Below, one piece after another: positions 45,316 through 63,561 of a stretch of 64,000 nucleotides of DNA. Source of the DNA: Oceanispirochaeta sp. (GTDB taxonomy: Bacteria; Spirochaetota; Spirochaetia; DSM-2461); assembly GCA_963663385.2 (NCBI GenBank), contig CAXXXD010000002.1:352001-416000 (forward strand), read 5' to 3'. Made by a program: the position numbers and the translations under genes. How positions within the stretch are numbered: the stretch's first letter is position 1; every line of letters starts with the position of its first letter. The notes below the pieces were generated by a model, which saw only the letters and a list, made by a program, of their open reading frames with translations, searched no databases and was not told where the DNA came from.

Positions 45316-45331
45316 TTCTTTTGGATAAATT

Positions 45332-45353
45332 GCAGGGTGCCTGAGCACCCTGC
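45332..45353 (+). other. Intercistronic stem-loop after the SBP gene
   Basis: GCAGGGTGC-ctga-GCACCCTGC, a perfect 9-bp stem. Confidence 0.65.
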
Positions 45354-45355
45354 CT

Positions 45356-46309
45356 TTGGAGAATAAGATTAAAGTGAAATCTATTAAAAAGAAAGGCGGC
45401 TTCCATCAGGGACGGAAAGAGATCCTGCCGCTGTATGTGATTATGCTGCCCGGACTGCTCTATTTTTGTGTATTCAGATATCTCCCTCTGCTGGGGACCC
45501 TCGTTGCATTCAAGGATGTGGCACCCTTCGAGGGGATCGAAGCTATCTTTACGGCTCCCTGGGCAGGATTGAAGCATTTCAGGAAATTCATCTCTTCCCA
45601 TTTTTTCTGGAATATCCTGGGGAATACCTTTGTGCTGGCCGGACTCCGTATGGTTTTTGAATTCATCCTGCCTATCGGTCTGGCTCTGATGATTAACGAG
45701 ATACGGCATATTAAATTCAAGAAAGCCATCCAGACCATATCCTATCTTCCCTATTTTATATCCAATGTGGTACTGGCGGGTATGGTCTTTAATCTTCTCT
45801 CCCTGAATGGGGGGCTTCTGCCTGAAATTATCCGTTTTTTCGGGGGACAGCCGGAATATTATGTAGGGAACTCAGGCAGTTTCCGAACTGTGCTGATTAC
45901 AGCTATTGTCTGGAAAAACGTGGGGTGGGGGACTATTATCTACCTGGCCGCCCTGACAGGAATCGATCCGCAGCTTTATGAGGCTGCAGAGATCGACGGC
46001 GCAGGCGTCTGGCAGAAAACCTGGAAAATTACCCTGCCCAGTATCAGTTACGCCATCGTTATCATGTTTCTTCTCCGCATTTCGGTGGTATTGAATCAGG
46101 GCTATGAAGAGACCCTGCTGCTGTACAGTCCTCCGGTCTATCAGGTAGCGGATATTATCGACACCTATGTTTTCAGGATCGGCCTGGAGCAGATGAATTT
46201 CTCCTTTGCTACTGCTGTTGGTTTGTTCAAATCCCTGCTGGCCCTGCTGCTGGTGGGATTGTCCAACTGGTCTACCCGGAAAATGGGGCAGGACAGCCTC
46301 TATACCTAA
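45356..46309 (+). CDS. ABC transporter permease (LplB-like); start may be GTG 45374
   Basis: PWAGLKHF, QTISYLPYFIS, GWGTIIYLAALTGIDPQLYEAAEIDGA and DIIDTYV. Confidence 0.93.
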   Translation: MENKIKVKSIKKKGGFHQGRKEILPLYVIMLPGLLYFCVFRYLPLLGTLVAFKDVAPFEGIEAIFTAPWAGLKHFRKFISSHFFWNILGNTFVLAGLRMVFEFILPIGLALMINEIRHIKFKKAIQTISYLPYFISNVVLAGMVFNLLSLNGGLLPEIIRFFGGQPEYYVGNSGSFRTVLITAIVWKNVGWGTIIYLAALTGIDPQLYEAAEIDGAGVWQKTWKITLPSISYAIVIMFLLRISVVLNQGYEETLLLYSPPVYQVADIIDTYVFRIGLEQMNFSFATAVGLFKSLLALLLVGLSNWSTRKMGQDSLYT

Positions 46310-46322
46310 AGGAGAATATTGA

Positions 46323-47201
46323 ATGAGTTTAAGATTTCCCAGCAAGGGAGAAAAGATATTCAGAATAGTCAATGCGGGGGTGCTGATACTGATCTCTCTC
46401 CTTTTTCTGATTCCCTTTCTGACAGTTTTTATGACCAGCTTTGTTTCGGAACAGGAGTATATCCAGCGCGGCCCCTTTATCCTGATTCCCCATACCATAG
46501 ACTGGGGCGCCTATAAGATGCTTCTGTTTCAGGGGAAGGCTGTGTTTAATGCCTATAAAATCACAGTTTTCAGGACTTTCCTTGGAACAGTGGTTCAGGT
46601 CCTGGCGACGAGCCTCCTGGCCTATGGACTGAGCAAGAGCCATCTGCCGGGGCGGAAGATTCTAATTTCGGCACTGGTTCTCTGTATTGTCTTTCCGGTT
46701 CAGATAATCCCACTGTTTCTGCTCAACAAGAGCCTGGGACTGATTGATTCGGTCTGGTCTCTTATCTGGCCCCGTCTGATCAATACGCAGTATGTGTTTA
46801 TCATGATGGCCTTTTTCAGACAGATCCCGGACAGCCTGGAAGAGTCCGCCCGTCTGGACGGCTGCAGTCTTTACCAGACTTTTCTGCGGATTATCCTTCC
46901 TCTGAGTCTTCCGTCTCTGGTTACAATCGGTCTTTTCTATGCGGTCTGGCAGTGGAATGACTGGTTCGATGCGGCCATGTTTCTGATCAGCCAGGATAAG
47001 CTGCCTGTTCAGAATCTGCTCAGAACGATACTACTGTCTTCCACCATGAGTGAAGTCATTACAACAGGCCAGTCTCCCCCTCCCGGGGAAGCGATTAAGG
47101 GCGCCGTAATCGTCATATCCACCCTGCCGATTCTGCTGGCCTATCCCTTTATTCAGAAATATTTTGTAAAAGGGATGATGATCGGATCGGTAAAAGGTTA
47201 A
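46323..47201 (+). CDS. ABC transporter permease (LplC-like)
   Basis: IPDSLEESARLDG, LFYAVWQWNDWF and YPFIQKYFVKGMMIGSVKG. Confidence 0.95.
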   Translation: MSLRFPSKGEKIFRIVNAGVLILISLLFLIPFLTVFMTSFVSEQEYIQRGPFILIPHTIDWGAYKMLLFQGKAVFNAYKITVFRTFLGTVVQVLATSLLAYGLSKSHLPGRKILISALVLCIVFPVQIIPLFLLNKSLGLIDSVWSLIWPRLINTQYVFIMMAFFRQIPDSLEESARLDGCSLYQTFLRIILPLSLPSLVTIGLFYAVWQWNDWFDAAMFLISQDKLPVQNLLRTILLSSTMSEVITTGQSPPPGEAIKGAVIVISTLPILLAYPFIQKYFVKGMMIGSVKG

Positions 47202-47313
47202 AAAATAGTATAGTATTTTTATACGGGACTGACAGGAAGATTTCCCACAGTTCTCTTATGCAGCCGTGTTTCCCGGGGCAGTCCCGTCTTTCTTTTGTAA
47301 ACAGGAGAAAACC

Positions 47314-49679: not shown

Positions 49680-51326
49680 CTACACTGTACGGTAGAACCG
49701 CTTGGCAATATAGGCGATATGCCCATTAATCCGTGAAAAGTAGGATATCAGATCCAGGTGAACCGAAGAGGTGGCAATGGACTCCGCCTGCCCCCTGGAG
49801 AGGCGTTCAATATGCATCTTTTTGTACTTTTCCTCCTCTTTCTTCTTGTGGGAATCCAGAACGGCCTTGGCTTTATCCCCGTCGCAGTCTTTAATGGCAG
49901 CCATAAGGTTTTCAAAGTTCCGGTTTACTTTAAAGATCAGGTGTTCCAGTTCATGGAACCCCTCTTCGGAGAACACGAGATTCTGATCGATCTTCTTGGT
50001 GGCCAGGCTCATGATATTTTTGTCAATAATATCCCCGATGGACTCCAGCTCGTTCTGAATATACATATAGTTCATGCAGAGTTCCGACTCCTTCAGAGTC
50101 ATCTCCTCCTGGGAGAGACGGGCCAGGAAAGGGATGATAATCTTATGAAGCGTATCAACCTTCGAGTCCAGCTCGCTGACCCGTTCAAATACGGAAGGAT
50201 CCTTGCTTCTGAAGGCGGACTTCATTTCCAGAATCATTTCATGAACAAGATCAGCCACACGGAGGATCTCTTTTTTTGTCATCAGAAGAGAGAGCTCCAC
50301 GCCATTATTAATTATCTGCTTCTTGATATATTTGGCGCCGAAAGGTTTGGGAGCCTCCCGCTCGGGGAACATTCTGTTAAAGAGACGTAGAATCAGCTTC
50401 AGGTTGGGGAAAACGATCAGGTGGTTGATTACGGGCATAAAGGTAAAACCCATGGCTATTTGGCGGGCCAGGCTGTCCGTTCCCAGAACATGGAGGGTAA
50501 ACCACTTGATTCCCCAGATATAGAGCCGTTCTCCCTGATAGGGGATGCAGAGAAGGATAAATACCCATATGGCTCCTATCATCTGAAACATTATATGGAT
50601 ATAGGCGGACCGCTTGGCCTCCCAGTTCAGGGTGATACTGCCCAGAACCGCTGTAATACAGGTTCCCACAGCGGCTCCCAGGTTGATGGGAATAGCCTGT
50701 TCCAGGGAGATGGAACCAGCTATGGCCATGGCGATGGTAATACTGGTTGTGGCTCCCGAAGACTGAATAATCATGGTAAAAACAAGACCCAGCAGTATAC
50801 CCAGGATAGGAGTTTCAATATTCTTCATCAGTTGAATAAAGGGCTCATAGGTTCTGAGGGGTTTGAGGGAGGAGGACATCATATCCATCCCCAGAAACAA
50901 CAGGCCGAAGGTAAAAATCGTCATGGCTATATGCTGGGTCTTCTTTGTTTTTACCGAGATTTTCATCATGAAACCGATGAAAACAATAAATGTGGAAAAC
51001 TTTGTTATGGAGGGGAAAGCGATAAGCTGAGGCAGAAAAGTAGACCCCAGTTCCGCTCCGAGGGTAACCGCCAGACTCTGTTGAAACGTCATCAGTCCGG
51101 CTCCGACAAGAGCCGCTTCCAGAACCGTCGTAGCCGATGAGGACTGGTTGACAATCGTAATACCCAAACCTGTCAGGTAGCCCCGGGCCGGTCCTTTTGT
51201 AAGGGTCATCATTATGGCCTTCATTTTTCCGCCTGCAATGGAAGTCAGGTGTTTGTTCATTTCCATCATTCCGTATAGAAAGATCGCCAGTCCGCCCACC
51301 AGGGAAAACAAATTCCAAATGCTCAT
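49680..51326 (-). CDS. Na+/phosphate cotransporter family protein with PhoU-like C-terminus
   Basis: GGLAIFLYGM, QSSSATT and QSSGATT repeats, GAELGST; C-terminal ELESIGD. Probable start is ATG 51326. Confidence 0.93.
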   Translation of the reverse strand: MSIWNLFSLVGGLAIFLYGMMEMNKHLTSIAGGKMKAIMMTLTKGPARGYLTGLGITIVNQSSSATTVLEAALVGAGLMTFQQSLAVTLGAELGSTFLPQLIAFPSITKFSTFIVFIGFMMKISVKTKKTQHIAMTIFTFGLLFLGMDMMSSSLKPLRTYEPFIQLMKNIETPILGILLGLVFTMIIQSSGATTSITIAMAIAGSISLEQAIPINLGAAVGTCITAVLGSITLNWEAKRSAYIHIMFQMIGAIWVFILLCIPYQGERLYIWGIKWFTLHVLGTDSLARQIAMGFTFMPVINHLIVFPNLKLILRLFNRMFPEREAPKPFGAKYIKKQIINNGVELSLLMTKKEILRVADLVHEMILEMKSAFRSKDPSVFERVSELDSKVDTLHKIIIPFLARLSQEEMTLKESELCMNYMYIQNELESIGDIIDKNIMSLATKKIDQNLVFSEEGFHELEHLIFKVNRNFENLMAAIKDCDGDKAKAVLDSHKKKEEEKYKKMHIERLSRGQAESIATSSVHLDLISYFSRINGHIAYIAKRFYRTV

Positions 51327-51381
51327 ACAATACCTCTTTTTATAAATCAAGAGCAGGGATCAGGATTTCTCTTTCAGCCCG

Positions 51382-51483
51382 CCCCCCTTAATCCCCCTGA
51401 CCATTCCGCTACGCTTCATTGCTCGGGGATGCAACCGCCCTCTCCTTCGGATCCCCCGAGCACAGTCGAGGGGGGAGAAGGGC
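51382..51483. repeat. REP-like GC-rich hairpin cluster, copy 1
   Basis: Contains CCCTTAATCCC (51385-51395) and CCCGAGCACAGTCGAGGG (51455-51472); both motifs recur in inverted orientation within 54971-55149. Confidence 0.6.
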
Positions 51484-51491
51484 TCTTTTTT

Positions 51492-52370
51492 TTATTTTTT
51501 AAATCCGATCTCTTCCATTCTTTTGTAAACATCCTCGGAGGTTCCTTTAAAAGGACCGGGTGCTTCCATCTTCATGGAGCAGAGAGCCGCCGCATAATAA
51601 ACCGCTTCTCCGGGACCGGCTTCCAGTCTTTTGGCCAGATAGGCTGCAAAGGTTGTATCTCCCCGGCCTGTTCTTCCTGAAAGGTTGGAGGGATTGTAGG
51701 GCGCTCTGTAGAACTGTCCATCCACCAGAACGAGGACTTCATTGTTATGAGTTACCATAACTTCCTTCGCGCCCAGAGCGGCCAGTTTCTTTGCGGCTTC
51801 TTCCCGGTCAGAAAGGCCTGTCATGATTTCGGCTTCCGCTGCATCGGTTTTCAGATAGGTTACTTTGGGCATCAGCTCTTCTGCGGCATCCCAGTTCCGG
51901 AAAAGGAGGTTCCCCTCTTCGTTGCACCGCAAAAGGCCCTGTGCATCAACGGCGACCTCTCCTTTCCCTGCGAAGTAGGAGATAAAATCATCGGGAATTT
52001 CGTTTCTGAAAAGACCGGCCAGATGAAAGATTCTGCTTTCGCATTCCGGAAAATCCTTTACATCAAAGTAATCCGCCTGGGAGAGGAGGGTTACCTGGCG
52101 TCTCTCTTTATCTGCTGTAAAGTAGATGTTCTCTATGCTGGTCGTTTTTTCCGAATCCAGTCTGGTAACTTCAACATTCTGCTCTCGCATGATATCCAGA
52201 GCGCTGTCATCTTCCTCCGCTGCTTTTGTAATAACACGGACCGATTTTCCAGTGCGGGCTGCGGCAATGGATGAGTAGATTACAGGACCACCTGTGAACC
52301 TGTTTTCATCCTCTTTGTAAATCATGATATCCTTGGATATATGACCAACCATTGTAATATCGAATTTCAT
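51492..52370 (-). CDS. Ribokinase/PfkB-family kinase of the RxGRGD type (TM0415-like, putative PPi-dependent inositol(-phosphate) kinase)
   Basis: GHISKD, TTSIENIY, VDAQGLLR, YLKTD..EAE, GRTGRGDT in place of DTTGAGD, and KMEAPGP. Confidence 0.85.
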   Translation of the reverse strand: MKFDITMVGHISKDIMIYKEDENRFTGGPVIYSSIAAARTGKSVRVITKAAEEDDSALDIMREQNVEVTRLDSEKTTSIENIYFTADKERRQVTLLSQADYFDVKDFPECESRIFHLAGLFRNEIPDDFISYFAGKGEVAVDAQGLLRCNEEGNLLFRNWDAAEELMPKVTYLKTDAAEAEIMTGLSDREEAAKKLAALGAKEVMVTHNNEVLVLVDGQFYRAPYNPSNLSGRTGRGDTTFAAYLAKRLEAGPGEAVYYAAALCSMKMEAPGPFKGTSEDVYKRMEEIGFKK

Positions 52371-52392
52371 TTTTCTGATCTCCTAAATAAAA

Positions 52393-52470
52393 GCACACGT
52401 GTGAGAGAGAAATACTATTTCTGACTCACACGTGTGCGTAGATTGTAGATTGAATCTCCCTGTTTGTAAA
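52393..52470 (-). promoter_or_regulatory. Sigma70 promoter of the kinase gene with two LacI-type operators
   Basis: Minus strand TTTACA (52470-52465), 17 bp, TACAAT (52447-52442). CACACGTGTG palindromes at 52394-52403 and 52427-52436. Confidence 0.85.
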
Positions 52471-52491
52471 GAGAGAATTTTACACAAGTTC

Positions 52492-53235
52492 TCAGATTTC
52501 TTTTGTCTCAACTCCCCCAGTCGTCATTTCCTTCTGAATCCTGTGGAAAAAATCAATGCGGTTTGTTGTAATGGAGTAAACTCCCAGTTTTAGAAATCGT
52601 CTCATTTCCTGCTCATTGTCAATGGTCCAGACCATAAGGGGGAGGCTTCGCGTCCGGGCGTAGCTCACCATCTCTTCCCGGCAGTAAAGGTAGTTGACAT
52701 TCAGACCGCAGCAACCCAGTTCGGATGCATTGTACACATTTCGTTCAACCGCAGCCGTATACTGATCTCCCTCACAGTCGAGCTCTTCATCATCCACATT
52801 CAGCAGAACCCGGGCATGGGGCAGATGTTCCCTGATATAAAGGATTTCTTTTCTGCCGCAACCGGAAAAGAGGATCTCTTTTGCCATATCCAGTTTCCTG
52901 ATATCGGAGATTGCCGGATCGGCGGCTTCTGTCTCTTTCAGATCCAGATTCATAAACAGTTTATGTTTATGGCAGAATTCCATGGCCTGGGAGAGGGTCA
53001 GCAATCCCGGCTTAACTGCCAGAAGACGTTCCAGCGGTGCATCTTTGATAAGCAGGGAATTGTCTCCGATCCTAACATCCGGATTATGATGCAGAACCGC
53101 TATTCCATCCGAAGTCCGGCGGACATCCACTTCAACCACATCAGGTTTTTTTTCTGCCGCCAGATCCAGATAGGACTGGCTGTTGGGGACTCTGTCCTGG
53201 GCGCCGCTGTGCAAAGTTACGATTGTATGCATCAT
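52492..53235 (-). CDS. Glycerophosphodiester phosphodiesterase family protein
   Basis: HSGA...PNS, VEVDVRRTSDG.AVLHH, NLDLK, VWTIDNE and GVYSITTN. Confidence 0.88.
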   Translation of the reverse strand: MMHTIVTLHSGAQDRVPNSQSYLDLAAEKKPDVVEVDVRRTSDGIAVLHHNPDVRIGDNSLLIKDAPLERLLAVKPGLLTLSQAMEFCHKHKLFMNLDLKETEAADPAISDIRKLDMAKEILFSGCGRKEILYIREHLPHARVLLNVDDEELDCEGDQYTAAVERNVYNASELGCCGLNVNYLYCREEMVSYARTRSLPLMVWTIDNEQEMRRFLKLGVYSITTNRIDFFHRIQKEMTTGGVETKEI

Positions 53236-54062
53236 TTTAAACTCACTGAAAAGCCCTGGGTGTAGTACTTGTAGACATAGCTGGAAAAGAACAGTACGGG
53301 CAGTGTCGTCAGGAGGCCGATTCCCATCAGTTCACCCCAGAGGGTCTCATACTCCCCGATGTAATTGACAATGACCAGCGGTAGTGTCTGCAGGGATGGT
53401 GTTCTGATAAACAGAAGGGCAAACAGGAATTCATCCCAGGCCGCAATGACGCTGAAGATGGATGTGGCAATGATTCCTGTTCTTGCCAGAGGCAGAACAA
53501 TCCTCATCAGAATAAACAGACGGTTTGCCCCGTCGATCATGGCCGCTTCCTCGAATGTTTCGGGAAGGGCCTTCAGAAATCCGAAAATCATCCAGATACA
53601 GTAGGGGAGTGTATAAACCTGATACACAAGGATCAATCCCAGTCTGCTGTTTATCAGTCCCATCCTGATAAAAACGGAGTAGAGAGGAATGGCCAGAACA
53701 ACAGGAGGCAGGATCTTGACCACAAGAACCCAAACCAGAAACAGGGAATTGCCCATATACGGGAATCTGTGTCTCACGAGAGAGTAGGATGCCAGAGTGG
53801 AAAGGGTGAGTGACAGCAGGGTTGCTGTAACAGCAACCAGCAGGCTGTTAAACATATTCCTGAAAAATCCGGACTTTACAACACTTATATAGTTTTCCAG
53901 TGTAAAAACCTGGGGGATGATAGTCGGCCGGGGAGAAATCACCTCAACCGGGGTTTTCAGGGAAGTAACTGTTATCCAGTATATGGGGAAAAGGGTTACC
54001 AGGGTTATGATAATAAGGAGAACCCAGAAAAGAGGGTGTCTCTTTCTATTTGCAATACTCAT
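53232..54062 (-). CDS. Carbohydrate ABC transporter permease (MalG type)
   Basis: FEEAAMIDGA and AWDEFLFAL. Confidence 0.94.
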   Translation of the reverse strand: MSIANRKRHPLFWVLLIIITLVTLFPIYWITVTSLKTPVEVISPRPTIIPQVFTLENYISVVKSGFFRNMFNSLLVAVTATLLSLTLSTLASYSLVRHRFPYMGNSLFLVWVLVVKILPPVVLAIPLYSVFIRMGLINSRLGLILVYQVYTLPYCIWMIFGFLKALPETFEEAAMIDGANRLFILMRIVLPLARTGIIATSIFSVIAAWDEFLFALLFIRTPSLQTLPLVIVNYIGEYETLWGELMGIGLLTTLPVLFFSSYVYKYYTQGFSVSLK

Positions 54063-54066
54063 TCAA

Positions 54067-54939
54067 TTAGTCCTTCTTTAGGATTTTACGGATGTAGATA
54101 AAGGAAATACCAGCTACAACAAGCAGTACGTAAATTGAGGCGGTAGATGCTTTGCCAAGGTTGAAGTAGGAGAATCCTTCTCTGTATATGTAATAGGACA
54201 GGGTTTCTGTTGAGTTTCCCGGTCCTCCCTGAGTCAGGGCATATACCTTTCCGAAAAGTTTGAAAGTATCAATTGTCCGCAGCATGATAAGCAGCATAAT
54301 CTGGTCGGACAGGATGGGCATGGTAATGGAAAAAACGGTTTTAAGATAACTGGCCCCGTCTATCTGGGCTGCTTCGAAAATCTCTTCGGGTATGGAACCC
54401 ATGGCAGCCTGCATCATAATAAAGGCAAAGGGAGTCCACTGCCAGATATCGACGATAACAATGGAAAAAAGCGCCTTGCTCTGATCGATCAGCCACCCTA
54501 TGGGTTGCGCTCCCGTTTCCCGCAGAAGGAAGTTAATCAGACCTATATCGTAATGGTAGAGGGTTTTCCATACTGCGCAGATAACCATGGACGAGATCAT
54601 CATGGGGAAGATAACAATGATCATAAAGGTCTTTTTTCCCCGGAAGTGCCCGTAAAACAACAGGGCCAGCACTATACCGAGGACTACCTCGCCTGCCGTA
54701 GCCAGAACAGAGAATACAAGGGTATTTCTGAAGGCTTCCCTGAAAAGGTTCTCTCCCAGGAGGCTGAAGTAGTTGCCCAGGCCTATAAAGGTTTTTTCAT
54801 CGCTCAGGTAGTTGTACTTGAAGAATGAGAGGGACAATACATTCAATACCGGATAGATTGTCAGCCAGAGCATAACGAGAAAAGCCGGCAGAATTATCAG
54901 ATAAAAGAATCCGGACTTTTGATATTTATTTTGAGTCAT
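54067..54939 (-). CDS. Carbohydrate ABC transporter permease (MalF type)
   Basis: DIWQWTPF, FEAAQIDGA and LTQGGPGNSTETLS. Confidence 0.94.
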   Translation of the reverse strand: MTQNKYQKSGFFYLIILPAFLVMLWLTIYPVLNVLSLSFFKYNYLSDEKTFIGLGNYFSLLGENLFREAFRNTLVFSVLATAGEVVLGIVLALLFYGHFRGKKTFMIIVIFPMMISSMVICAVWKTLYHYDIGLINFLLRETGAQPIGWLIDQSKALFSIVIVDIWQWTPFAFIMMQAAMGSIPEEIFEAAQIDGASYLKTVFSITMPILSDQIMLLIMLRTIDTFKLFGKVYALTQGGPGNSTETLSYYIYREGFSYFNLGKASTASIYVLLVVAGISFIYIRKILKKD

Positions 54940-54970
54940 TTTTTATTACTCCAGATATAGGGGGGCTTTC

Positions 54971-55149
54971 CCCTCTCCCTCGACTCCGCTCGGGAGTCGA
55001 GGGGCATCAATACTTTATTCTATTGTCTTCTCCCCTTCGGGGGAGATGGTCTGAATCTCACCTCTCTCCCGCCCCTCTCAATCTCCCCGAAGGGGAGACG
55101 TCAATTCGGTTTCCCTCCCTTGGAGGGATTAAGGGAGGCAGGGAGAGGG
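54971..55149. repeat. REP/REPIN-like hairpin cluster, copy 2, bounded by a 10-bp inverted repeat
   Basis: CCCTCTCCCT (54971-54980) pairs with AGGGAGAGGG (55140-55149). Internal hairpins at 54977-55003, 55029-55046, 55082-55098 and 55112-55128. Confidence 0.7.
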
Positions 55150-55155
55150 ATTTTA

Positions 55156-56436
55156 TTATTTAAGGACCTCGGTTATGCCTTTTTCGGCGGAGGCGAGGGC
55201 TTCTTCTGCGGTCATTTCACCAATCAGGGCAAACTGAAGGGCTGTTCCCATCTGGTCTTCAATCTCTTTCCATTTGGTTGTTCTGGTACGGGCAACACCG
55301 TTGTTCAGAGCATCCAGCTGGGCGGGATACCAGGGGTACTTTTTCGTCAGGGCGGAGCTTTCGTACACCGATGCTATTGTGGGAGGATTACCAAACTGCA
55401 TGGCCATCTCGTCCTGTACGTCCTTGCTGGTGGCAAAGTTTATGAAATCAAAGGCGGCATCCTTGTTTTTTGACGCTTCAGGAATGGCGATCATCCAGAC
55501 ACCGATCATGGGAGAGGATTTTTCAACCTGTCCGGGGTGTTTGATAACCTTTACTTTTCCTACAACCGCAGATTCGTTGGGGTCTTCCAGTTTATCGATC
55601 CAGCCGGGCCATACTTCTGTTACAACAGCAGCTTTACCGGAGTAGATAGCATCTTTAACCTGGGCGGACTGATACATGGATACACCCTCTGGGGCATATT
55701 GGGCCAGTTCCAGGAAGTAGTTGAGGGCATTAAGCGCTTCGGGAGAGTTTACGGTAACATTCCCGTCGGCATCCAGAATCTTGGCGCCGAAAGACCAGAA
55801 AATGGGCAGGAACCCGGTTACAATAGGATTCCCTTTGCTTCCGCGGAATACAACGCCGTTTACATCGGCTTCGTTGTCATTGATGGTTTTAACAGCTGTC
55901 ATTACCTGGTCCCATGTCTCGGGGGCTTCCAGATTATATTTGGCAAAAAGATCTGTTCTGTAGGCAAAAAGTTCAACATTTCCTGCAAAAGGAAGAGCAA
56001 AGAGAGGGCTGTTGTCTGTGTAGGGGAATCTTCCCAGTTTAAGAGCGGAGCCGATAAAACCGGAATCGACGGAAGATCCGGTTTTTTTGTATAAATCGCT
56101 CAGATTGGCAAGCCAGCCGACTTTCTGAAACTGTGTGATGTTGGGGTCGTCAATCAGGATCACATCGTATGTTCCCAGACCGCTTTTCATATCGATTACG
56201 GATTTTTCAAAAAGGCTGCTGCCGGATAGTTTAAGGAGTTCGAAATCCACATTGGGATTCTGTGCCGCATAACTGTCTACTGCCAACTGCATGGAATCAC
56301 CGTAGGATCCATCGCGTCCTGCCACCGTAAGGGTAACCTTTTTTGCACCAGCTCCCGCTTCCGCTTCCTGCTGCCCGTTTGAAAAGGCAGAGAAAACAAG
56401 CAGAGCCATTAAACTAATAGTAAAAATCTTTTTCAT
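55156..56436 (-). CDS. Carbohydrate ABC transporter substrate-binding protein
   Basis: Signal peptide; YDVI..D.P, ALPF.GN..LFAYRTDLF, PETWD and AFDFINF. Confidence 0.93.
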   Translation of the reverse strand: MKKIFTISLMALLVFSAFSNGQQEAEAGAGAKKVTLTVAGRDGSYGDSMQLAVDSYAAQNPNVDFELLKLSGSSLFEKSVIDMKSGLGTYDVILIDDPNITQFQKVGWLANLSDLYKKTGSSVDSGFIGSALKLGRFPYTDNSPLFALPFAGNVELFAYRTDLFAKYNLEAPETWDQVMTAVKTINDNEADVNGVVFRGSKGNPIVTGFLPIFWSFGAKILDADGNVTVNSPEALNALNYFLELAQYAPEGVSMYQSAQVKDAIYSGKAAVVTEVWPGWIDKLEDPNESAVVGKVKVIKHPGQVEKSSPMIGVWMIAIPEASKNKDAAFDFINFATSKDVQDEMAMQFGNPPTIASVYESSALTKKYPWYPAQLDALNNGVARTRTTKWKEIEDQMGTALQFALIGEMTAEEALASAEKGITEVLK

Positions 56437-56573
56437 AAGTTCCTCCGGGAAAAATCTTAAGCCTATTCAAGGATTCCAGGCAATATATTTTTTTGCTTCA
56501 CTTATCTAGTATGGATGACTTAATATGTTAAAATTGCTTATTAAGCAGTAAAAAACATCAGAAAGGCGGAATA

Positions 56574-57533
56574 ATGGGCGGAAAGCACAGGTTAAAGAGG
56601 CATGATCTTGTAAAGTCCCTCTTCTTTTTGTTCTCTCAGGAGTACGATTCCCGAAAGGACGAATCCATTCTGGATATTCAGATCCCCATCAATCAGGTAA
56701 TCGAATACCTTCAGGAGCGTTTTTCCGTTTCCTATTCGGGGGATAACTGGATTTTTACCCAGATCCGCAATTATGAGGAAGAGATCGGATACCGTCTTTT
56801 TCAGAAGGAAAAGAACAGTGACGGCGGTTTTTCATTAAGGCTCTATACAAAGATGGAGGCTTTTGAACAGAAACGGCACCTCTATGTTTCCCAGAAGCTC
56901 AAGGTCTGTAATGCCCTTTATGATATGATCAGCAATACTGTCGAGTTCCCGGGTCAGAAAAAGACGGTGAAACTCTTTCTGGGCGCTGGAAGCACGCTTT
57001 TCCATCTGGCTCAGATCCTGGCGGAGAAGGATGCGTCTCTACCCTTCTCTCTGGAGATATACTCCCACAATATCAGTGTCATAAACTGTTTTCTTTCATC
57101 CCGGGTGGATCCCGAGCATATAAAGGTACGTATTCCCGGAGGAGATCTTGATCCTGTTACGAACTCCATCATCAGCCCGTCCATGAATCTTTACGGCGAC
57201 ATCGACTTCGATTACATTGTTCAGGGTGCTTCCTATCTGACAGATGGAGCTGTTTATGTGGAGAGCCTTGTTGAAACGGAGTTGAAAAAGAGTATCCTCC
57301 ATAAGAGCAGAGGGAAGAAGGTCCTGATCCTGACAGGCCATGAAGTCCGGCCCCAGCTCCCTATTGAAACGCCGCCCTTTGGTCGTTTGCAGGATTATGA
57401 TTACCTTGTTATTCCTCATAACCGGAACAGGGCCCTGAAAAACCTGGATCAGATGCTTCTGGATTTTGAAAGGATACTGAAACCGGAGATCCTGAACTGG
57501 AACTACCGGATTTATCAGATTGATGCGGAATAA
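56574..57533 (+). CDS. Atypical DeoR-like regulator (DeoR C-terminal sensor-like domain, unrecognised N-terminus)
   Basis: F..K....V.QK..., LFLGAGSTL, IYSHNI, IPGG and E.ELKK match the DeoR sensor domain; divergent from the ABC operon. Confidence 0.65.
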   Translation: MGGKHRLKRHDLVKSLFFLFSQEYDSRKDESILDIQIPINQVIEYLQERFSVSYSGDNWIFTQIRNYEEEIGYRLFQKEKNSDGGFSLRLYTKMEAFEQKRHLYVSQKLKVCNALYDMISNTVEFPGQKKTVKLFLGAGSTLFHLAQILAEKDASLPFSLEIYSHNISVINCFLSSRVDPEHIKVRIPGGDLDPVTNSIISPSMNLYGDIDFDYIVQGASYLTDGAVYVESLVETELKKSILHKSRGKKVLILTGHEVRPQLPIETPPFGRLQDYDYLVIPHNRNRALKNLDQMLLDFERILKPEILNWNYRIYQIDAE

Positions 57534-57652
57534 TCGTCAGGAAACACCAATCTCTTTCCATTGACAAAATTCCCTTAAACCTTATTCTTTAGATATACTC
57601 AAAATTTTATCCCCTCCGGGACAGAAAATATCTAAGGTAAAGGAACGCAGTT

Positions 57653-58663
57653 GTGGCGGTAACCATAAAAGATATAGCTAAAATTGCAGGCGTAACGCAT
57701 TCTACCGTTTCCCGCTGTTTAAACGACAAACCCGGTGTGTCAGATAGTGTACGGGCGGAAATCAAGAAAATAGCCGCCGATCTGGGATTTGAATTCAATG
57801 CCAATGCCAGAGGGCTTAATACCAGCCGGACCGGTACAATCGGAATTATTATGAACGAAGACCTGGGAGACGGCAATCTTCACTTTTTTTCCAACTCCTT
57901 TCTGAGTCAGATTCGAAACATTCTGGAAAAAGCAGATCTGGATATGCTGACTTCCTTTTCAAGAAACAGCATTAATCAAAAGGATAATATAAAAAAACTG
58001 GTAAACAGAAGAAAGGTTGACGGGCTGATTCTGCTCTGCTCCTCTATTACAAAAGACTCTGTGGATTTTCTGAGAGCCTCCAAAACCCCCTTCATTTTTT
58101 CCCACCAGATACCCTCCCGTCATTTTGGAGAGGTTAATGCTGTGTATTGTGATCATATGAAAGGGGGATATCAGGCGGTAAAGCATCTGATAGACCGGGG
58201 CCGGAGGAATATCATCTGTGTAAAACGGAAGGATAACCGGACAGAATTTCAGATGAGAACAGACGGGTATATTAAAGCGCTGAATGATCACGGACTGCCA
58301 TATCGTCCGGAATACATTCTTTCCGGCGGTTCCACCCTGGACTGCGGGCGGGAAATAATGGCCGGTATTGAGCCTTTCCTGGGGGAGATTGACGGGATTT
58401 TCGCCCATACAGATCTTCTGGCTCTGGCTCTTTTGAAAGAGTTCAGGCATAGGGGAATACGTATCCCCGAGGATATCTCCCTTATAGGTTACGATAATAT
58501 TGAGCTTTGCACCTATGTTGAACCGAACTTGAGCTCAATAAATCAACCGTCCCGGGATATTTCCGTACAAACCTGCGAAATCCTTATCCGCCAGTTAAAT
58601 GGGACTGTTGCGCCGGATATAAGGGTAATCCCTCCCGAACTGATTGTCCGCTCTTCTTCCTGA
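57653..58663 (+). CDS. LacI family transcriptional regulator
   Basis: VTIKDIAKIAGVTHSTVSRCLN, N.NARGL hinge, VDGLI, IPEDISLIGYDN and LIVRSS. Confidence 0.96.
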   Translation: MAVTIKDIAKIAGVTHSTVSRCLNDKPGVSDSVRAEIKKIAADLGFEFNANARGLNTSRTGTIGIIMNEDLGDGNLHFFSNSFLSQIRNILEKADLDMLTSFSRNSINQKDNIKKLVNRRKVDGLILLCSSITKDSVDFLRASKTPFIFSHQIPSRHFGEVNAVYCDHMKGGYQAVKHLIDRGRRNIICVKRKDNRTEFQMRTDGYIKALNDHGLPYRPEYILSGGSTLDCGREIMAGIEPFLGEIDGIFAHTDLLALALLKEFRHRGIRIPEDISLIGYDNIELCTYVEPNLSSINQPSRDISVQTCEILIRQLNGTVAPDIRVIPPELIVRSSS

Positions 58664-58679
58664 TAAATAAAACTTTTTC

Positions 58680-58762
58680 TTTACAAATAGGAAAACCGGC
58701 TCTATTATAGAATACGCACACGTGTGAGAGAATGAATTGCTATTAACTCACACGTGTGCGTA
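58680..58762 (+). promoter_or_regulatory. Sigma70 promoter of the afu-like operon with two LacI-type operators
   Basis: TTTACA (58680-58685), 17 bp, TATTAT (58703-58708). CACACGTGTG at 58717-58726 and 58749-58758. Confidence 0.85.
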
Positions 58763-58777
58763 TATTTAGGAGGATTT

Positions 58778-59839
58778 ATGAGAACTAAAATTATTGCTGC
58801 AGTGTCTGTTGCACTGGTCACTGTCTGTCTGCTGGCAGGCTGTGAGAAGAAATCGGAGAGTAGCGCTGATGGATCAGCAGTGAAACAATCTAAAGAATTG
58901 ACCATGTATTGTGCTCTGCCTGAGACGGAGATCCCTTCATTTATAGATGCATTTAAAGAAGATACCGGTATAACAGTCAATTTTGTACGTCTTTCCGCCG
59001 GGGAGATCCTTTCCAAAATCCAGGTTGAAAAGAATAATCCTCAGGCCAGTATCTGGTATGGTGGAAACTGTGACTCCTTTATTGCCGCAGCCAACAATGA
59101 TCTTCTGGAAGCCTACCGGTCACCCGAACTGGCGAATATTCCCGAAGCTTATCAGGATCCCATTGGATACTGGTCTCCCGTTTATGTGGGCGCCCTTGCT
59201 TTTGCTGTTGATAAAGACTGGTTTGCCTCAAAAGGTCTGGAATACCCCAAATCCTGGAAGGATCTGCTGAAACCGGAATTTGAAGGACAGATATCCATGG
59301 CTCACCCCGGATCTTCCGGTACGGCATACACTATTCTGGCTACCATGGTTCAGATGCTGGGAGAAGAAGAAGCCATGGCTTATATGAAAGAACTGAATAA
59401 AAATATCCGTCAGTATACCAAATCAGGTTCCGCTCCTCCCAAGAATGTTGGTTTGGGTGAAGCCGCTATCGGTCTGGCATTCTCTCATGACTGTCTGAAA
59501 CCGGCTGTTCAGGGTTATCCTGTAGAAGTGTCTTTCGCCAATGACGGAACAGGTTATGAAATCGGCGCCATTGCCATGATTAAAAACGGTCCGGAAGATG
59601 AAGTGGAAAATGCCAAAGCATTTATTGACTGGGTACTGAGCAAGAAGGGGCAGGATATTTACTCTACCAACAACTCCTTCAGACTTCCTGTCAACTCCAC
59701 TGCCGTAGTTCCGGATGGAGCCATCAATATCAGTGATCTTCCCGTAATTGAATATGATTTCCTTTGGGCCGGAGAAAACAGAACCCGTCTGATTGATAAA
59801 TTCTCGGAAGTTGTAGCTGCAAAAGAAAATTTAAAATAA
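58778..59839 (+). CDS. afuA: ABC substrate-binding lipoprotein, AfuA/FbpA cluster (sugar-phosphate type)
   Basis: Lipobox LLAGC; EKNNPQA.IWYGG, PGSSGTAY, FSHD and GTGYEIG. ATG 58778 after AGGAGG. Confidence 0.8.
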   Translation: MRTKIIAAVSVALVTVCLLAGCEKKSESSADGSAVKQSKELTMYCALPETEIPSFIDAFKEDTGITVNFVRLSAGEILSKIQVEKNNPQASIWYGGNCDSFIAAANNDLLEAYRSPELANIPEAYQDPIGYWSPVYVGALAFAVDKDWFASKGLEYPKSWKDLLKPEFEGQISMAHPGSSGTAYTILATMVQMLGEEEAMAYMKELNKNIRQYTKSGSAPPKNVGLGEAAIGLAFSHDCLKPAVQGYPVEVSFANDGTGYEIGAIAMIKNGPEDEVENAKAFIDWVLSKKGQDIYSTNNSFRLPVNSTAVVPDGAINISDLPVIEYDFLWAGENRTRLIDKFSEVVAAKENLK

Positions 59840-59847
59840 ATACTAAT

Positions 59848-59881
59848 GGAACGGTCCTTTTACTGCATTCAGGGCCGTTCC
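59848..59881 (+). other. Intercistronic stem-loop after the SBP gene
   Basis: GGAACGGTCCT ... AGGGCCGTTCC, an 11-bp stem with one G-U pair. Confidence 0.6.
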
Positions 59882-59902
59882 TGTCTCATTCAGGAATAAA
59901 TC

Positions 59903-61591
59903 ATGAATAATCGCACCAAAGATTTTATATGGAAGCTGAATATGCTGCGGAAAGAGCCTTTGCTTGTTCTGCTGATCTTTATTATCTTGTCAGCTCTAAC
60001 CATTTTTGTAATTTTCCCGCTGATCATGATCGTCCGTTACAGCATTACGACTGATGACGGCGGTTACAGTATTCGTACTATTGTAGATGTAATAAAAAAC
60101 AGTTCTTACAGACTGACTTTTATGAACAGTATCAAATTGGGAGTAATCGCTGCGCTTATAGCCACAGTGATCGGATATATATTTGCTTTTACCATTACTA
60201 GAACAGAGGTCCCCTGCAAAGGTTTTCTTAAAACCATGGCGACCCTGCCTATCATATCGCCGCCTTTCGTTCTGTCCCTGTCCATAATCTTTCTTTTTGG
60301 TCGAAAGGGGCTGATCACTAACGGGCTGTTCGGATTGACAGACTTTAACGTATACGGAATGCACAGTCTGATACTGGTTCAGTCACTCTCCTTTTTTCCT
60401 GTTGCCTATCTGACCCTGACGGGGATTCTGGAAGCAATCGATTCTTCAGTGGAAGATGCCGCGCTGAATCTGGGGGCTTCCAGGTGGAAAATTTTCTGGA
60501 CTGTAACATTTCCCCTGTCCCTTCCCGGGATTTTCAGTGCCCTGCTGCTTGTTTTTATCCAGTCTCTTCAGGATTTCAGCAATCCTGCTGTAATCGGGGG
60601 GGGATTCCCCACTCTGGGTGTGGAAGCCTATCGGGTTATTACGGGAATGTACGATCTCAGAACCGGTGCCATCCTTTCGGTAATGCTCCTTCTTCCGAGT
60701 CTGGCAGCTTTCCTGCTGCAGAAGTACTGGGTAAGTGGAAAGGGATTTGTCACTGTAACGGGTAAACCATCCCAAAACCGTACGAAGATTGACCAGAAAC
60801 ATATTGTGATTCCGCTTTTTGGTGCCTGTCTGCTGCTCTGTGCCGTTATTGTCCTGTTCTACGGGACTGTAATTGTAGGTGCTTTTGTTAAAGTCTGGGG
60901 AATTAATTACAGCGTTACTCTGGATCATTTCCGCTATGTATTCTCAATCGGATTCAAGCCTCTGAAAAATGCTGTGATCCTGGCTCTGGCAGCAACTCCC
61001 ATTGCGGGACTGACAGGTATGGCCATCGCTTTCCTGACGGTCCGGAAAAAGTTTATCGGCAAGGGGTATATGAGCCTGGCTTCCCTTCTGACCTTTGCTC
61101 TGCCCGGTACGGTTGTCGGTATCAGTTACATCCTGGCATTCAATGACCGGCCCTTCCTTTTAACGGGGACTGCTTTTATCCTGATCTGTGTCTTTGTATT
61201 CAGGAATCTTCCGGTAGGGATTGAGGGGGCGACATCGGCTCTGATGCAGATTGATCCATCCATTGAGGAAGCGTCTGTGAATATGGGAGCAAACAGTTTT
61301 CAGACCTTCTTCTATGTTACTCTTCCCTTGATAAAGGGAGCCTTTTTCTCCGGCCTGGTTTACTCCTTTGTAAAAGCCATGACGGCGGTAAGCGCCATTA
61401 TCTTTCTTGTCTCGGCAAAATGGAACGTGGTTACCACCAGGATTTTCTCTCTGTTTGAAGTGAGTCAGTATAGTGATGCCGCTGCCTACATTGTCATTAT
61501 GATCTTTGTCATTATGGCAGCCATCTATGTTCTGAACTTCCTGGTTAATAGAATAAATTCTCCCCAAAAAGTTGTAAAAGCTAAGAGCTAA
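59903..61591 (+). CDS. afuB: ABC permease, AfuB/FbpB type (two fused TM domains)
   Basis: LPIISPPFV; two EAA loops (VEDAALNLGA, IEEASVNMGA); FVTVTGK. Confidence 0.85.
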   Translation: MNNRTKDFIWKLNMLRKEPLLVLLIFIILSALTIFVIFPLIMIVRYSITTDDGGYSIRTIVDVIKNSSYRLTFMNSIKLGVIAALIATVIGYIFAFTITRTEVPCKGFLKTMATLPIISPPFVLSLSIIFLFGRKGLITNGLFGLTDFNVYGMHSLILVQSLSFFPVAYLTLTGILEAIDSSVEDAALNLGASRWKIFWTVTFPLSLPGIFSALLLVFIQSLQDFSNPAVIGGGFPTLGVEAYRVITGMYDLRTGAILSVMLLLPSLAAFLLQKYWVSGKGFVTVTGKPSQNRTKIDQKHIVIPLFGACLLLCAVIVLFYGTVIVGAFVKVWGINYSVTLDHFRYVFSIGFKPLKNAVILALAATPIAGLTGMAIAFLTVRKKFIGKGYMSLASLLTFALPGTVVGISYILAFNDRPFLLTGTAFILICVFVFRNLPVGIEGATSALMQIDPSIEEASVNMGANSFQTFFYVTLPLIKGAFFSGLVYSFVKAMTAVSAIIFLVSAKWNVVTTRIFSLFEVSQYSDAAAYIVIMIFVIMAAIYVLNFLVNRINSPQKVVKAKS

Positions 61592-61603
61592 GAGGAATAA
61601 GCA

Positions 61604-62746
61604 ATGAGTAAAAATATGAGTATCGAAGAACAGATAAAAGCTCACAGCAGTAGTCTGAGGCTGAAAAATATTACAAAAACCTTCCCCAGTCTGGATGGCT
61701 CGGGAGATTTCACCGCAGTGGATTCCATCAATCTGGATATTAAGTCCGGAGAGCTGACAACCCTCCTGGGACCTTCCGGATGCGGTAAGACGACAACCCT
61801 CCGGATGGTGGCCGGATTTGAAAGCATTACATCGGGTTCTCTCCTTCTGGGAGAAGATTCTATTGAGAGTGTCCCCCCCAATAAGAGAGATATGGCCATG
61901 ATGTTCCAGAGTTATGCCCTGTTTCCCCATATGACTGTTTACAACAATATCCGTTATGGTCTTAAAATCCAGAAACTCCCCGAGAAGGAAATCCGGGAGC
62001 GAACGGAACAGATTATTGATCTGATGCAGATCCGCGGGCTGGAACACCGTCTGCCCTCCAATATCTCCGGCGGTCAGCAGCAGCGTGTAGCCCTGGCCCG
62101 TGCCGTTGTTATTGAACCGAAGGTACTTCTTTTTGATGAACCCCTCTCCAACCTGGATGCAAAACTGCGGGAGTATATGCGGGATGAGCTGAGGGCTCTC
62201 CAGAAACGCCTGGGAATTACCAGTCTCTATGTAACCCATGACCAGTCGGAAGCCATGGCTATTTCCGATAAGGTTGTTCTTATGAATAAGGGTAAAATCA
62301 TACAGGTCGGATCACCCAAGGAATTGTATAATGAGCCTGTTTCCCTGTTTGTCGCCGACTTTATCGGCAAATCCAACTTCCTGGACTGTCAGTCCGAGGG
62401 AATGTCTCAGGAATCGGCCATTGTGGAAATCCTGGGAAAGAAACTCTATCTGCCTGCTCCCGGAAAAGCCTATAAAGGCACAAAAGGCCGGATGACCGCT
62501 GTTGTCCGTCCCGAATCGGTTAAGGTCGGTCCTTCGGGTAAAGGTCTTTATGAAGGACGCATATGCAAAGCCGTATTCTTCGGAAATTATGTTGAGTATG
62601 ATGTCCAGGTGGGAGAAAAAAAACTTCGTGTAGAGGCTCCCCGTCCTCAGGAACAGGAACCTTTCCGGGTTGATGAGAGTGTGGGGATCTCCTTTGATCT
62701 GAACAGTGTCCGGCTTATAGACGAACTGCCGGAGAATATGGATTGA
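61604..62746 (+). CDS. afuC: ABC ATP-binding protein, AfuC/FbpC/PotA type
   Basis: GPSGCGKTT, FQSYALFPH, SGGQQQRVALAR and DEPLSNLDAKLR. Confidence 0.88.
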   Translation: MSKNMSIEEQIKAHSSSLRLKNITKTFPSLDGSGDFTAVDSINLDIKSGELTTLLGPSGCGKTTTLRMVAGFESITSGSLLLGEDSIESVPPNKRDMAMMFQSYALFPHMTVYNNIRYGLKIQKLPEKEIRERTEQIIDLMQIRGLEHRLPSNISGGQQQRVALARAVVIEPKVLLFDEPLSNLDAKLREYMRDELRALQKRLGITSLYVTHDQSEAMAISDKVVLMNKGKIIQVGSPKELYNEPVSLFVADFIGKSNFLDCQSEGMSQESAIVEILGKKLYLPAPGKAYKGTKGRMTAVVRPESVKVGPSGKGLYEGRICKAVFFGNYVEYDVQVGEKKLRVEAPRPQEQEPFRVDESVGISFDLNSVRLIDELPENMD

Positions 62747-63561
62747 CTTCTATGGTAAAACTGGCAGTCAGCGATATAGACGGGACCCTTGTTGATACGC
62801 AGAAACGGATCTCCCCTTTGAACAGAAAAGTCATTAAGGCATTTCAGGAGAAGGGCGGTGCGTTCACGCTTGCCACAGGGCGGATCGAAAGGTCCGCCAT
62901 TCCCTACTGCCGAGAACTGGATATTCAGGTTCCCCTTATCCTTTATAATGGAGCCAGAATTGTACACCCCGTCACCGGTCGTGTTTTATATGAAAAGGCC
63001 CTCAGTGAGGCGGATGTCACCAGGGCGCTGGTTTTAAGGGAAATGTATCCTCTGGACTACATTATCTACTCTGACGGGGAGCCATATGTATTCGGCCGAA
63101 GCGAAAATATTCTGACCTTTGAAAAAGGTGATGGATATGAATGCAACGTTATTGGTTCTTATGAAGAATTAAAGGGCAGATCCGTTACAAAAATCCTGAT
63201 GATCGGAGATAACGCCTTTTTCGACGGATACCGGAATGATTTCAGCCGGGATAAGGAAGCAAGTGCCGTGCTGGTTCAGTCCGAACCCACATACCTGGAA
63301 ATCCTTCCGGCTGGAGTGAATAAAGGAACCGCGCTGGAACAGCTGGAGATGATCCTGGGTATAGACAAGGATGAAGTCATCTGTTTCGGCGACAACATGA
63401 ATGATGTTGAGATGATTCGCCGGGCCGGTATCGGTGTGGCCATGGGGAATGCCGGGGCGGAGGTAAAAGCTGCCGCGGATTGTATTGCCCCCGATCATAA
63501 TGACGATGGCGTTGCCCGGGTTCTGGCCCGGGAAGCGGATCTATCAGATATCAGTATTTAA
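62743..63561 (+). CDS. Cof-type HAD IIB phosphatase
   Basis: DIDGTL, ATGR, YNGA, NKG.AL, FGDNMND.EMI..AG.GVAMGNA and DGVA. Confidence 0.95.
   Translation: MTSMVKLAVSDIDGTLVDTQKRISPLNRKVIKAFQEKGGAFTLATGRIERSAIPYCRELDIQVPLILYNGARIVHPVTGRVLYEKALSEADVTRALVLREMYPLDYIIYSDGEPYVFGRSENILTFEKGDGYECNVIGSYEELKGRSVTKILMIGDNAFFDGYRNDFSRDKEASAVLVQSEPTYLEILPAGVNKGTALEQLEMILGIDKDEVICFGDNMNDVEMIRRAGIGVAMGNAGAEVKAAADCIAPDHNDDGVARVLAREADLSDISI

Follow-up and report, generated by a model that had tools for sequence, protein, structure and literature searches.

The locus and its predicted operator sites

The window analysed here is a 64,000-nucleotide stretch of an Oceanispirochaeta sp. genome (contig CAXXXD010000002.1, positions 352,001 to 416,000 of the forward strand), and two gene groups within it very probably belong to one regulon under a LacI-type repressor, LacI_A. 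The first group comprises a predicted pyrophosphate (PPi)-dependent kinase, KinA, followed by a sodium/phosphate (Na/Pi) cotransporter gene. The second, about 6 kb away and next to lacI_A, encodes an AfuABC-like ATP-binding cassette (ABC) importer and a Cof-type phosphatase. The intervening DNA encodes a glycerophosphodiester phosphodiesterase (GDPD), a three-gene CUT1-type ABC unit and a DeoR-type regulator. All of the gene identities given in the original prediction, which was made from the window alone, were confirmed, but these intervening genes had been overlooked. The coordinates are collected in Table 1.

Four exact copies of the 10-base palindrome CACACGTGTG occur in the window as two pairs, spaced by 33 and 32 bp, and the 17-mer ACTCACACGTGTGCGTA is letter-identical at 52424-52440 and 58746-58762 on direct reading, as had been claimed. 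With one mismatch allowed, the window holds five matches against 0.47 expected, and none of 100 shuffles reaches five. Extending the scan to the whole genome (5.31 Mb, 98% complete; G000 hereafter, with contigs C2, C3 and C4, while other G and L numbers denote genomes and loci of relatives), as the original prediction had proposed, yielded five exact copies at three promoters, against a Markov expectation of 0.14-0.22; the fifth heads a phytase-like gene. All five are intergenic, whereas 13 of the 14 one-mismatch matches lie inside long open reading frames (ORFs). A matrix built from 21 sites of relatives, when scanned on G000, returned exactly these five sites at 21-28 bits, with the next best match at 14.4.

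Each pair lies just downstream of a TTTACA-17-TAyrAT-like promoter, again in line with the earlier claim. A promoter scan alone proves nothing, since matches in the region are no commoner than in shuffles (18 found, 19.8 by chance); the TTTACA element nevertheless precedes the site in all seven AfuA-type promoters that were compared, one from G000 and six from relatives. In the kinase pair, the spacer separating the operators (52408-52422) is a perfect inverted repeat with 7-bp arms and a 1-base centre, which was not seen in the other pairs.

The sites are kept in the close relatives, which bear Spirochaetaceae source labels and belong to a family comparison of 38 genomes. The site stands before AfuA in seven of seven genomes, and before KinA in all four in which KinA heads its own unit. 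The second site of the afu promoter is exact in G009 and G010, reduced to a half-site in G003 and G007, and absent in G019. The Na/Pi gene directly follows the kinase in G000, G009 and G025; where it stands alone, it is preceded by its own operator in G003, G007 and G008, although three other separate copies have none. In G007, LacI_A, the phytase, afuABC, Cof, KinA, a second repressor (LacI_B), PHP and HAD phosphatases and a second ABC importer form one run, and the metagenome locus L149 carries a LacI_A relative (51% identity) with two sites.

LacI_A combines a LacI helix-turn-helix with a periplasmic-binding-protein-like sensor domain and adjoins its predicted targets, although no operator lies in front of lacI_A itself in G000. 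Its orthologs occur in 8 of the 38 family genomes, all eight of them kinase-bearing, and all eight carry the site at regulon genes. The form of the operator fits a LacI protein: an even palindrome with a central CG, placed upstream of orthologous operons and kept in relatives. The 32-bp tandem spacing coincides with a known peak for LacI regulons (PMC4052901). In a table of LacI recognition helices, H-S-helix proteins fetched by protein similarity rather than by the site (C2:1419179 in G000, L057 and L058) are accompanied by GCACACGTTTGC-type sites, and no other helix type has the site within two mismatches; several further rows had been fetched by the site itself and are circular. The five CACACGTGTG palindromes are thus likely to be operators of the adjacent LacI_A, and the split LacI regulon of the original prediction, whose site travels with rearranged genes, is borne out with high confidence.

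Table 1. Features of the predicted regulon and of related loci (positions without a prefix are those of the window)
Feature	Location	Strand	Basis or remark
Na+/Pi cotransporter with PhoU domain	49680..51326	-	PF02690 + PF01895, NF037997
KinA, predicted TM0415-type PPi-dependent ribokinase-family enzyme (RTGRGD)	51492..52370	-	best PDB matches 1VK4/5YSP/7E4L
Operator, downstream site, kinase promoter	52394..52403	.	exact CACACGTGTG; 21.2 bits, matrix trained on relatives' sites only
Operator, promoter-proximal site, kinase promoter	52427..52436	.	exact CACACGTGTG; 24.4 bits, same relatives-only matrix
Predicted sigma-70-type promoter TTTACA-17-TACAAT, kinase	52442..52470	-	consensus match only, 10/12
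GDPD	52492..53235	-	PF03009, PDB 1O1Z
CUT1-type ABC unit (binding protein 55156-56436; permeases 54067-54939, 53232-54062)	53232..56436	-	family profiles
DeoR-type regulator, divergent from CUT1 unit	56574..57533	+	PF00455
LacI_A, predicted cognate repressor, helix VTHSTVSRCL	57653..58663	+	PF00356 + PF13377
Predicted promoter TTTACA-17-TATTAT, afu	58680..58708	+	consensus match, 10/12
Operator, promoter-proximal site, afu promoter	58717..58726	.	exact CACACGTGTG; 23.1 bits; before AfuA in 7/7 genomes
Operator, second site, afu promoter	58749..58758	.	exact CACACGTGTG; 28.1 bits
AfuA-like predicted phosphate-ester binding lipoprotein, RLSAGE subfamily	58778..59839	+	best matches 8X1A, 4R72, 6WCE
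AfuB-like fused permease (59903-61591) and AfuC-like ATPase (61604-62746)	59903..62746	+	family profiles
Cof-type HAD-IIB phosphatase, overlaps afuC stop	62743..63561	+	TIGR00099 above cut-off, PF08282
Predicted MINPP-type phytase lipoprotein, 484 aa	G000 C2:610777-612231		after fifth site; His_Phos_2, PF00328
Two conserved proteins	L040:8522-11551 (G019), L253:9171-12185 (G027), L038:15970-17475 (G003), L031:5874-7361 (G008)		similar genes G000 C2:136788-141357
Clostridial-type operon: LacI - HAD - afuABC - Cof - PiT - divergent PPi-PFK paralog - DUF47	L191:10853-14637, L168, L150, L240 (G691)		

Importer, kinase, phytase and the probable substrate

The AfuA-like protein is 38-42% identical to AfuA-type proteins and 18-24% identical to ferric binders. 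Its structure model (predicted local distance difference test score, pLDDT, 90.7) superposes on glucose 6-phosphate (G6P)-binding proteins with a root-mean-square deviation of 1.3 A, as compared to 2.9-5.2 A for ferric binders. The AfuA residues T150, H205, D206 and E229 are kept as T182, H237, D238 and E261, and the three at sugar-ring positions (H237, D238 and E261) are invariant in 35 of 35 subfamily members. Ferric binders of the FbpA type use tandem tyrosines as iron ligands, and the window protein has FSHD where SfuA has YHY; iron uptake was rejected in view of these residues and of the fold. The residue S37 of AfuA aligns with A74, with S73 adjacent, and the S37A change in AfuA weakens G6P binding without abolishing it (PMC4546632). 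The N-terminal pocket loop is unlike that of AfuA throughout the subfamily, in which RLSAGE is invariant (35/35). As the original prediction held, the sequence and the model therefore support a phosphate-ester importer rather than an iron importer. Elsewhere in G000, C2:141589-159584 encodes three further AfuA/FbpA-class ABC importers beside a phosphomutase-like gene; they are 32-45% identical to the binding proteins of the regulon, and no CACACGTGTG-type operator was found there.

KinA matches the TM0415-type structures 1VK4, 5YSP and 7E4L with E of about 4e-49, the next PDB match having an E of 1.5e-6. It keeps the equivalents of D11, I76, N78, L116, Q141, R145, K171, R229, R232, D234, K265 and M266 (the last as M268), including all four inositol-binding residues (D11, N78, Q141 and R145), and differs from TM0415 at F221 (Y225 in KinA) and S89 (V). 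In this kinase group, F221 and M266 are bulky hydrophobic residues that block the ATP pocket; the change at F221 is a conservative one at a position that is F in many close homologs. K174, R233, R236 and D238, which represent the RxGRGD motif and the basic residues K171, R229 and R232 of TM0415, recur in the paralog KinB and in 55 of 55 homologs. By these residues and its closest structures, KinA is predicted to be a TM0415-type PPi-dependent kinase. The pairing of such a kinase with a co-regulated Na/Pi gene, another element of the original prediction, agrees with the kept residues and with the separate Na/Pi genes that have their own operators in three relatives. A plasmid search for the kinase gave only three matches, all distant.

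The Na/Pi gene starts at an ATG at 51326 behind a Shine-Dalgarno sequence, the longest ORF beginning at 51350. G+C-rich palindromic repeats resembling repetitive extragenic palindromic (REP) elements fill 51351-51491, between the kinase and the Na/Pi gene, and 54941-55155, between the CUT1 binding protein and permease genes; BLAST pieces of the two in G000 number 8 and 37, self-matches counted. Since no T-run follows the first repeat on the minus strand, read-through from the kinase into the Na/Pi gene is plausible. A second Na/Pi gene, 82% identical to the window copy, lies at C4:141612-143258 without an operator.

The fifth site, a perfect 16-mer GAGCACACGTGTGCTC at C2:610461, lies about 200 kb away behind a TTGACG-17-TATTAT match and before the phytase gene. 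The best solved relatives of the encoded lipoprotein are BtMinpp and other MINPP phytases (E 3e-33), and its RHGSRN and HAET align with the BtMinpp motifs. The fold, the motifs and the nearest structures predict a phytase-like enzyme. Downstream of it lie LacI_B, PHP and HAD phosphatases, another ABC importer and a second RTGRGD kinase, KinB. Relative to TM0415, KinB carries N78L, a change also present in 7E4L, a TM0415 variant which we take to have been made to switch the product position. The same change accompanies a different product position in homolog 49 (PMC5931981).

A second palindrome, TACTTAAACGTTTTAGTA, is found upstream of lacI_B in five genomes and upstream of the phytase gene in four. 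When G000 is scanned with a matrix from the relatives' copies, the top-ranking promoters are those of the phytase, lacI_B and PHP; since shuffling the matrix columns yields similar counts, it is conservation that supports this motif. The distance between the CACACGTGTG-type and TACTTAAACGTTTTAGTA-type operators at the phytase promoter is 33 bp in G000 and 35 bp in G008, and all six family genomes with the phytase also have LacI_A and the kinase. Two proteins of no assigned family (about 1000 and 500 aa) are associated with the regulon in relatives; an operator precedes the gene of the larger one in two genomes, and the smaller follows KinA in two. Neither has a Pfam or NCBIfam match, and a single-sequence model reached a pLDDT of 36.

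The iol genes (two iolG copies, iolE, iolD and an iolB-like gene) are found on C3. The original prediction had reported none nearby, which holds within the window but not for the genome. The cluster (C3:433160-449360, L106) also contains transaldolase-like, acylating aldehyde dehydrogenase and carboxyltransferase genes and, in the stretch read, no iolC; its LacI belongs to the same clade as LacI_A. The relatives-only matrix found no operator copy at this cluster. Within the family, iolD occurs in all 11 kinase-bearing genomes and in 10 of the 27 others. In a sample of Clostridia, from which the centre genome was left out and in which two genomes were not scored, it occurs in three of five kinase genomes and in 17 of 393 others, and in five of five further Firmicutes genomes picked for the kinase. 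The kinase adjoins iol genes in L137, L110 and L250, and an inositol-type ABC importer in L244. The co-occurrence check that the original prediction had proposed thus linked the kinase to iolD, with LacI_A confined to kinase genomes (8/8).

Beyond the spirochaetes, 80 metagenome loci of the AfuA subfamily fell into 16 lineages at 90% identity, of which four under 3 kb were dropped and 12 judged. Six of these have an RxGRGD kinase, three have Cof together with a phosphofructokinase (PFK)-family protein, and three have neither. In the PFK-family partner, VGR and AQQA replace the canonical MGR and xQR at positions that presumably bind fructose 6-phosphate (F6P). The protein also carries GGND and PKTIDND, which are signatures of PPi-type PFK (PMC12203962). 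Two of the three PFK-partner lineages additionally have a PiT transporter and a DUF47 protein, while L150 has another gene order and lacks both within the stretch covered. The genome G691 has the same operon type along with a separate canonical PPi-PFK and an iol cluster, and gave no RxGRGD kinase match; counting it, PiT is present in three of the four cases. The divergent PFK-fold paralog is a candidate for a new PPi-dependent phosphotransferase, and both the kinase and the Pi transporter look to have been replaced by unrelated folds in a few, related lineages. Because two unrelated folds accompany the importer, a PPi-type phosphotransferase seems tied to it.

Inositol phosphates are probably the substrates of the regulon, a suggestion of the original prediction that is strengthened by the fifth site at the MINPP-like phytase and by the co-occurrence with iolD.

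Direction of the kinase and alternative explanations

Neither MIPS nor an inositol-lipid transferase was found in G000, the only CDP-alcohol transferase being PgsA, so that re-phosphorylated inositol would have no evident sink. Free inositol is the substrate of the iol cluster, and for these reasons the reverse, PPi-forming direction of the kinase fits better (inositol phosphate (InsP) + Pi -> inositol + PPi). It would also supply IolG with free inositol and account for both the co-regulation of the Pi importer and the poor Km of TM0415 for inositol (12 mM; PMC5931981). The Entamoeba PPi-ACK sets a precedent for a PPi kinase that operates towards PPi (PMC5931981). G000 contains a PPi-PFK and two membrane pyrophosphatases (PPases), and no family I PPase was found; the idea that it lacks any soluble PPase was ruled out by a CBS-type family II enzyme. 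Provided that the substrate is an inositol phosphate, we lean towards a kinase that runs backwards, and the PPi-driven re-phosphorylation at another position in the original prediction does not appear to be the likeliest course.

The complete system could then be pictured as follows, and we put its chances at about even. An exported MINPP-type enzyme would trim phytate, and AfuABC would import inositol monophosphate. Cof would strip phosphates that KinA cannot handle, such as the axial 2-phosphate, while KinA (N78 type) would move the ester phosphate onto Pi supplied by the co-regulated Na/Pi symporter, yielding PPi that may feed the PPi-PFK and the two membrane PPases. Free inositol would pass to the iol cluster on C3. 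LacI_B, through TACTTAAACGTTTTAGTA, would control a parallel branch (PHP, HAD, ABC and KinB) and share the phytase promoter, with KinB (N78L) likely serving another ring position. The CUT1 importer and GDPD, under DeoR control, may feed glycerophosphoinositol-type diesters to the same kinase. Broadened into an energy-conserving route, in which anaerobes import InsP from phytate and phosphatidylinositol head groups and convert the ester phosphate to PPi without hydrolysis, with paralogs dividing the ring positions, the phytase under two LacI proteins and some clostridia achieving the same with the PFK fold and PiT, the proposal is tentative and rather doubtful. Every part comes from a known family; what is new is how they are assembled, the phytase with its two operators and the proposed direction.

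Several observations weigh against this picture. G010 (93% complete, 90 contigs) keeps three perfect sites, while LacI_A was not found in its locus or genome; its locus (L029, C10) is otherwise intact, and a recent loss or an unassembled copy of lacI_A is possible. The C2:1419179 LacI, with its near-identical site, could cross-bind the operators. LacI_A was considered as a sister of the iol-cluster LacI (38% versus 34% in BLAST), but a quick tree gave four groups in one unresolved clade. The exact site precedes only three of seven phytase copies (one upstream region is truncated), and the phytase was not found in 5 of the 11 kinase genomes of the family. Three of the 12 AfuA lineages have no PPi-type enzyme within the fetched flanks, two of the five clostridial kinase genomes lack an iolD match, and the Fisher values for co-occurrence (3e-4 and 1e-3) overstate the link because kin are not independent. 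Simple hydrolysis of the imported ester by Cof, which is encoded in the same operon, could render a reverse kinase redundant; the family II PPase is present; and PPi formation, being uphill by a few kJ/mol, requires a high Pi/PPi ratio. In the AfuA pocket, the H/D/E residues for hexose phosphates are retained, and the word 'inositol' occurs 0 times in PMC4546632.

The same regulon and substrate class could be combined with a forward kinase: Cof would free inositol, PPi would re-phosphorylate it at another position, and the Na/Pi transporter would balance the surplus Pi. The product would be stored or trapped as a pool, act as an inducer or lead to some further product. This direction is downhill, the Km for PPi is below 15 uM, and in G003, G007, G019 and G008 the Cof and KinA genes are neighbours in a single operon. 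Moreover, activity of TM0415 and two homologs has been measured in this direction only (PMC5931981). Yet with neither MIPS nor a transferase other than PgsA, no sink for InsP was found in G000; a phosphatase coupled to a forward kinase would form a futile cycle, because the iol cluster needs free inositol, and iolD is present in all kinase genomes of the family. A forward-running kinase is rather unlikely.

A general regulon for scavenging sugar phosphates or other polyol phosphates, for phosphorus or carbon, appears improbable. The sugar-ring residues and T150 of AfuA are kept, the superposition on G6P-bound proteins is close, the clostridial partner is a PFK family member, and branch-2 histidine phosphatases can be broad, all of which would suit such a regulon; so would the doubt of the TM0415 authors that inositol is the true acceptor (PMC5931981). 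On the other hand, a cell that imports G6P or F6P has no need of a phosphatase or a kinase to use it, the PFK-fold partner is divergent and in G691 occurs in addition to a canonical copy, the AfuA pocket loop differs throughout the subfamily, and the phytase site and the iolD co-occurrence would be left unexplained.

Finally, it is very improbable that the sites are bound by the C2:1419179 LacI, whose recognition residues are common with LacI_A, or by DeoR, or that the pairs act as RNA hairpins at message 5' ends: the pairs do fold strongly (-31.9 and -29.9 kcal/mol, z -8.6 and -5.7), the kinase-pair spacer is itself an inverted repeat and G010 has sites without LacI_A, but RNA pairing is expected from any two copies of one palindrome, single sites serve the same promoters in G009, G010 and G025 (kinase) and in G019 (afu), spacer pairing is not conserved, the pairs have no Rfam match, and the site is present at regulon genes in all eight LacI_A genomes. 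DeoR was rejected because of its distribution, since the 11 DeoR-bearing kinase loci of other genomes lack the site and the one locus with LacI_A has it; the hairpin as a selected feature is set aside, not fully, because single sites suffice in relatives. The C2:1419179-1420219 gene, which encodes another H-S-helix LacI, has its GCACACGTTTGC site upstream at 1419145 and a sugar ABC unit adjacent, and its relatives in other genera have a perfect GCACACGTGTGC.

Relation to known systems and neighbouring genes

The nearest parallel to the LacI_A regulon is the inositol regulon of Thermotoga maritima (IolR, InoEFGK, TM0411-TM0416), with the same PPi-type kinase family, kept residues and a link to inositol catabolism; its InoE reportedly binds inositol phosphate. 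Free inositol does not support growth of T. maritima (PMC3750489), although TM0415 lies in its inositol regulon (PMC3553997). Here the regulator is a LacI rather than a ROK protein, the importers are of the AfuA type and CUT1, and the gene set further includes a phytase, Cof, GDPD, Na/Pi and a second kinase paralog; the lower pathway follows the iolG/E/D/B type, as compared to IolM/N/O in T. maritima.

The importer shares its fold, 38-42% identity, the H205/D206/E229/T150 set and the fused permease with ATPase with AfuABC (Actinobacillus AfuA, 4R72-4R75; Vibrio VcA0625, 8X1A; P5PA, 6WCE). It differs in the S37 to A change, in the N-terminal loop (ALPETE, RLSAGE), and in its phosphatase and PPi-type kinase partners and predicted LacI control. 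The fifth-site protein shares the RHG motif and the HAE proton-donor motif with BtMinpp/MINPP phytases (4FDT, 6RXD and 7ZGF), but has RHGSRN instead of RHGARF and is a spirochaete lipoprotein behind two LacI operators 33 bp apart. Local LacI regulons (Ravcheev et al. 2014, PMC4052901) likewise show even palindromes with a central CG, sites just after the promoter and the 32-bp tandem spacing, whereas here one gene is common to two LacI regulons and lacI_A in G000 has no operator before it. In the Mitsuokella phytate pathway (PMC7618129), a phytase yields Ins(2)P as well as inositol, and transporters for inositol and for Pi are co-induced; dephosphorylation is modelled in the periplasm, and a PPi kinase is not mentioned in the accessible passages. 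We found no account of the motif, the gene set or a reverse role for TM0415 in the literature searched, phytate papers including PMC12482443 in their accessible passages, most subscription journals lying outside the search.

For the TM0415 family, which numbers 4065 proteins at E <= 1e-30, no physiological role has been established, and the authors who studied it doubted the acceptor (PMC5931981). The regulon links this family to a phytase, a phosphate-ester importer and a Pi transporter through a conserved operator, beyond mere neighbourhood, and a new ligand class is proposed for an AfuA subfamily labelled iron-binding in databases. If the reverse direction is true, anaerobes with PPi-dependent glycolysis would have a substrate-level source of PPi, the supply of which is not settled for at least one model organism (PMC8863071). 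The finding would also bear on phytate mineralisation in spirochaetes and in clostridia of the gut. The energy-conserving route, if true, would give the orphan TM0415 family a physiological role and provide a catabolic PPi source. If only the regulon is true, it is a solid but ordinary new LacI regulon.

The GDPD/CUT1/DeoR block is counted as part of the system because, among other spirochaete loci, GDPD is next to the kinase in 14 of 19, and in 15 of 28 when all loci are counted. The CUT1 unit has neither an ATPase gene in the unit nor a CACACGTGTG-type operator upstream. A DeoR-type regulator occurs in 11 of the 28 kinase-centred loci, none of which has the operator, and likely controls the GDPD branch. 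The combination of a CUT1 importer with a cytoplasmic GDPD resembles UgpBAECQ, but the window unit lacks an ATPase and stays below the NCBIfam cut-offs (UgpA 133 of 335 bits, UgpE 86 of 297, UgpQ 43 of 264).

Another divergent PFK-family gene of G000 (C3:1109098-1110318, with GGND and IGR) lies between a ROK-like regulator and deacetylase- and SIS-like genes and, judged from the N-termini only, is probably amino-sugar related. In the window, an unrelated cluster at 43777-49596, consisting of a CUT1 ABC unit and a 776-aa membrane AraC regulator, converges on the Na/Pi gene.

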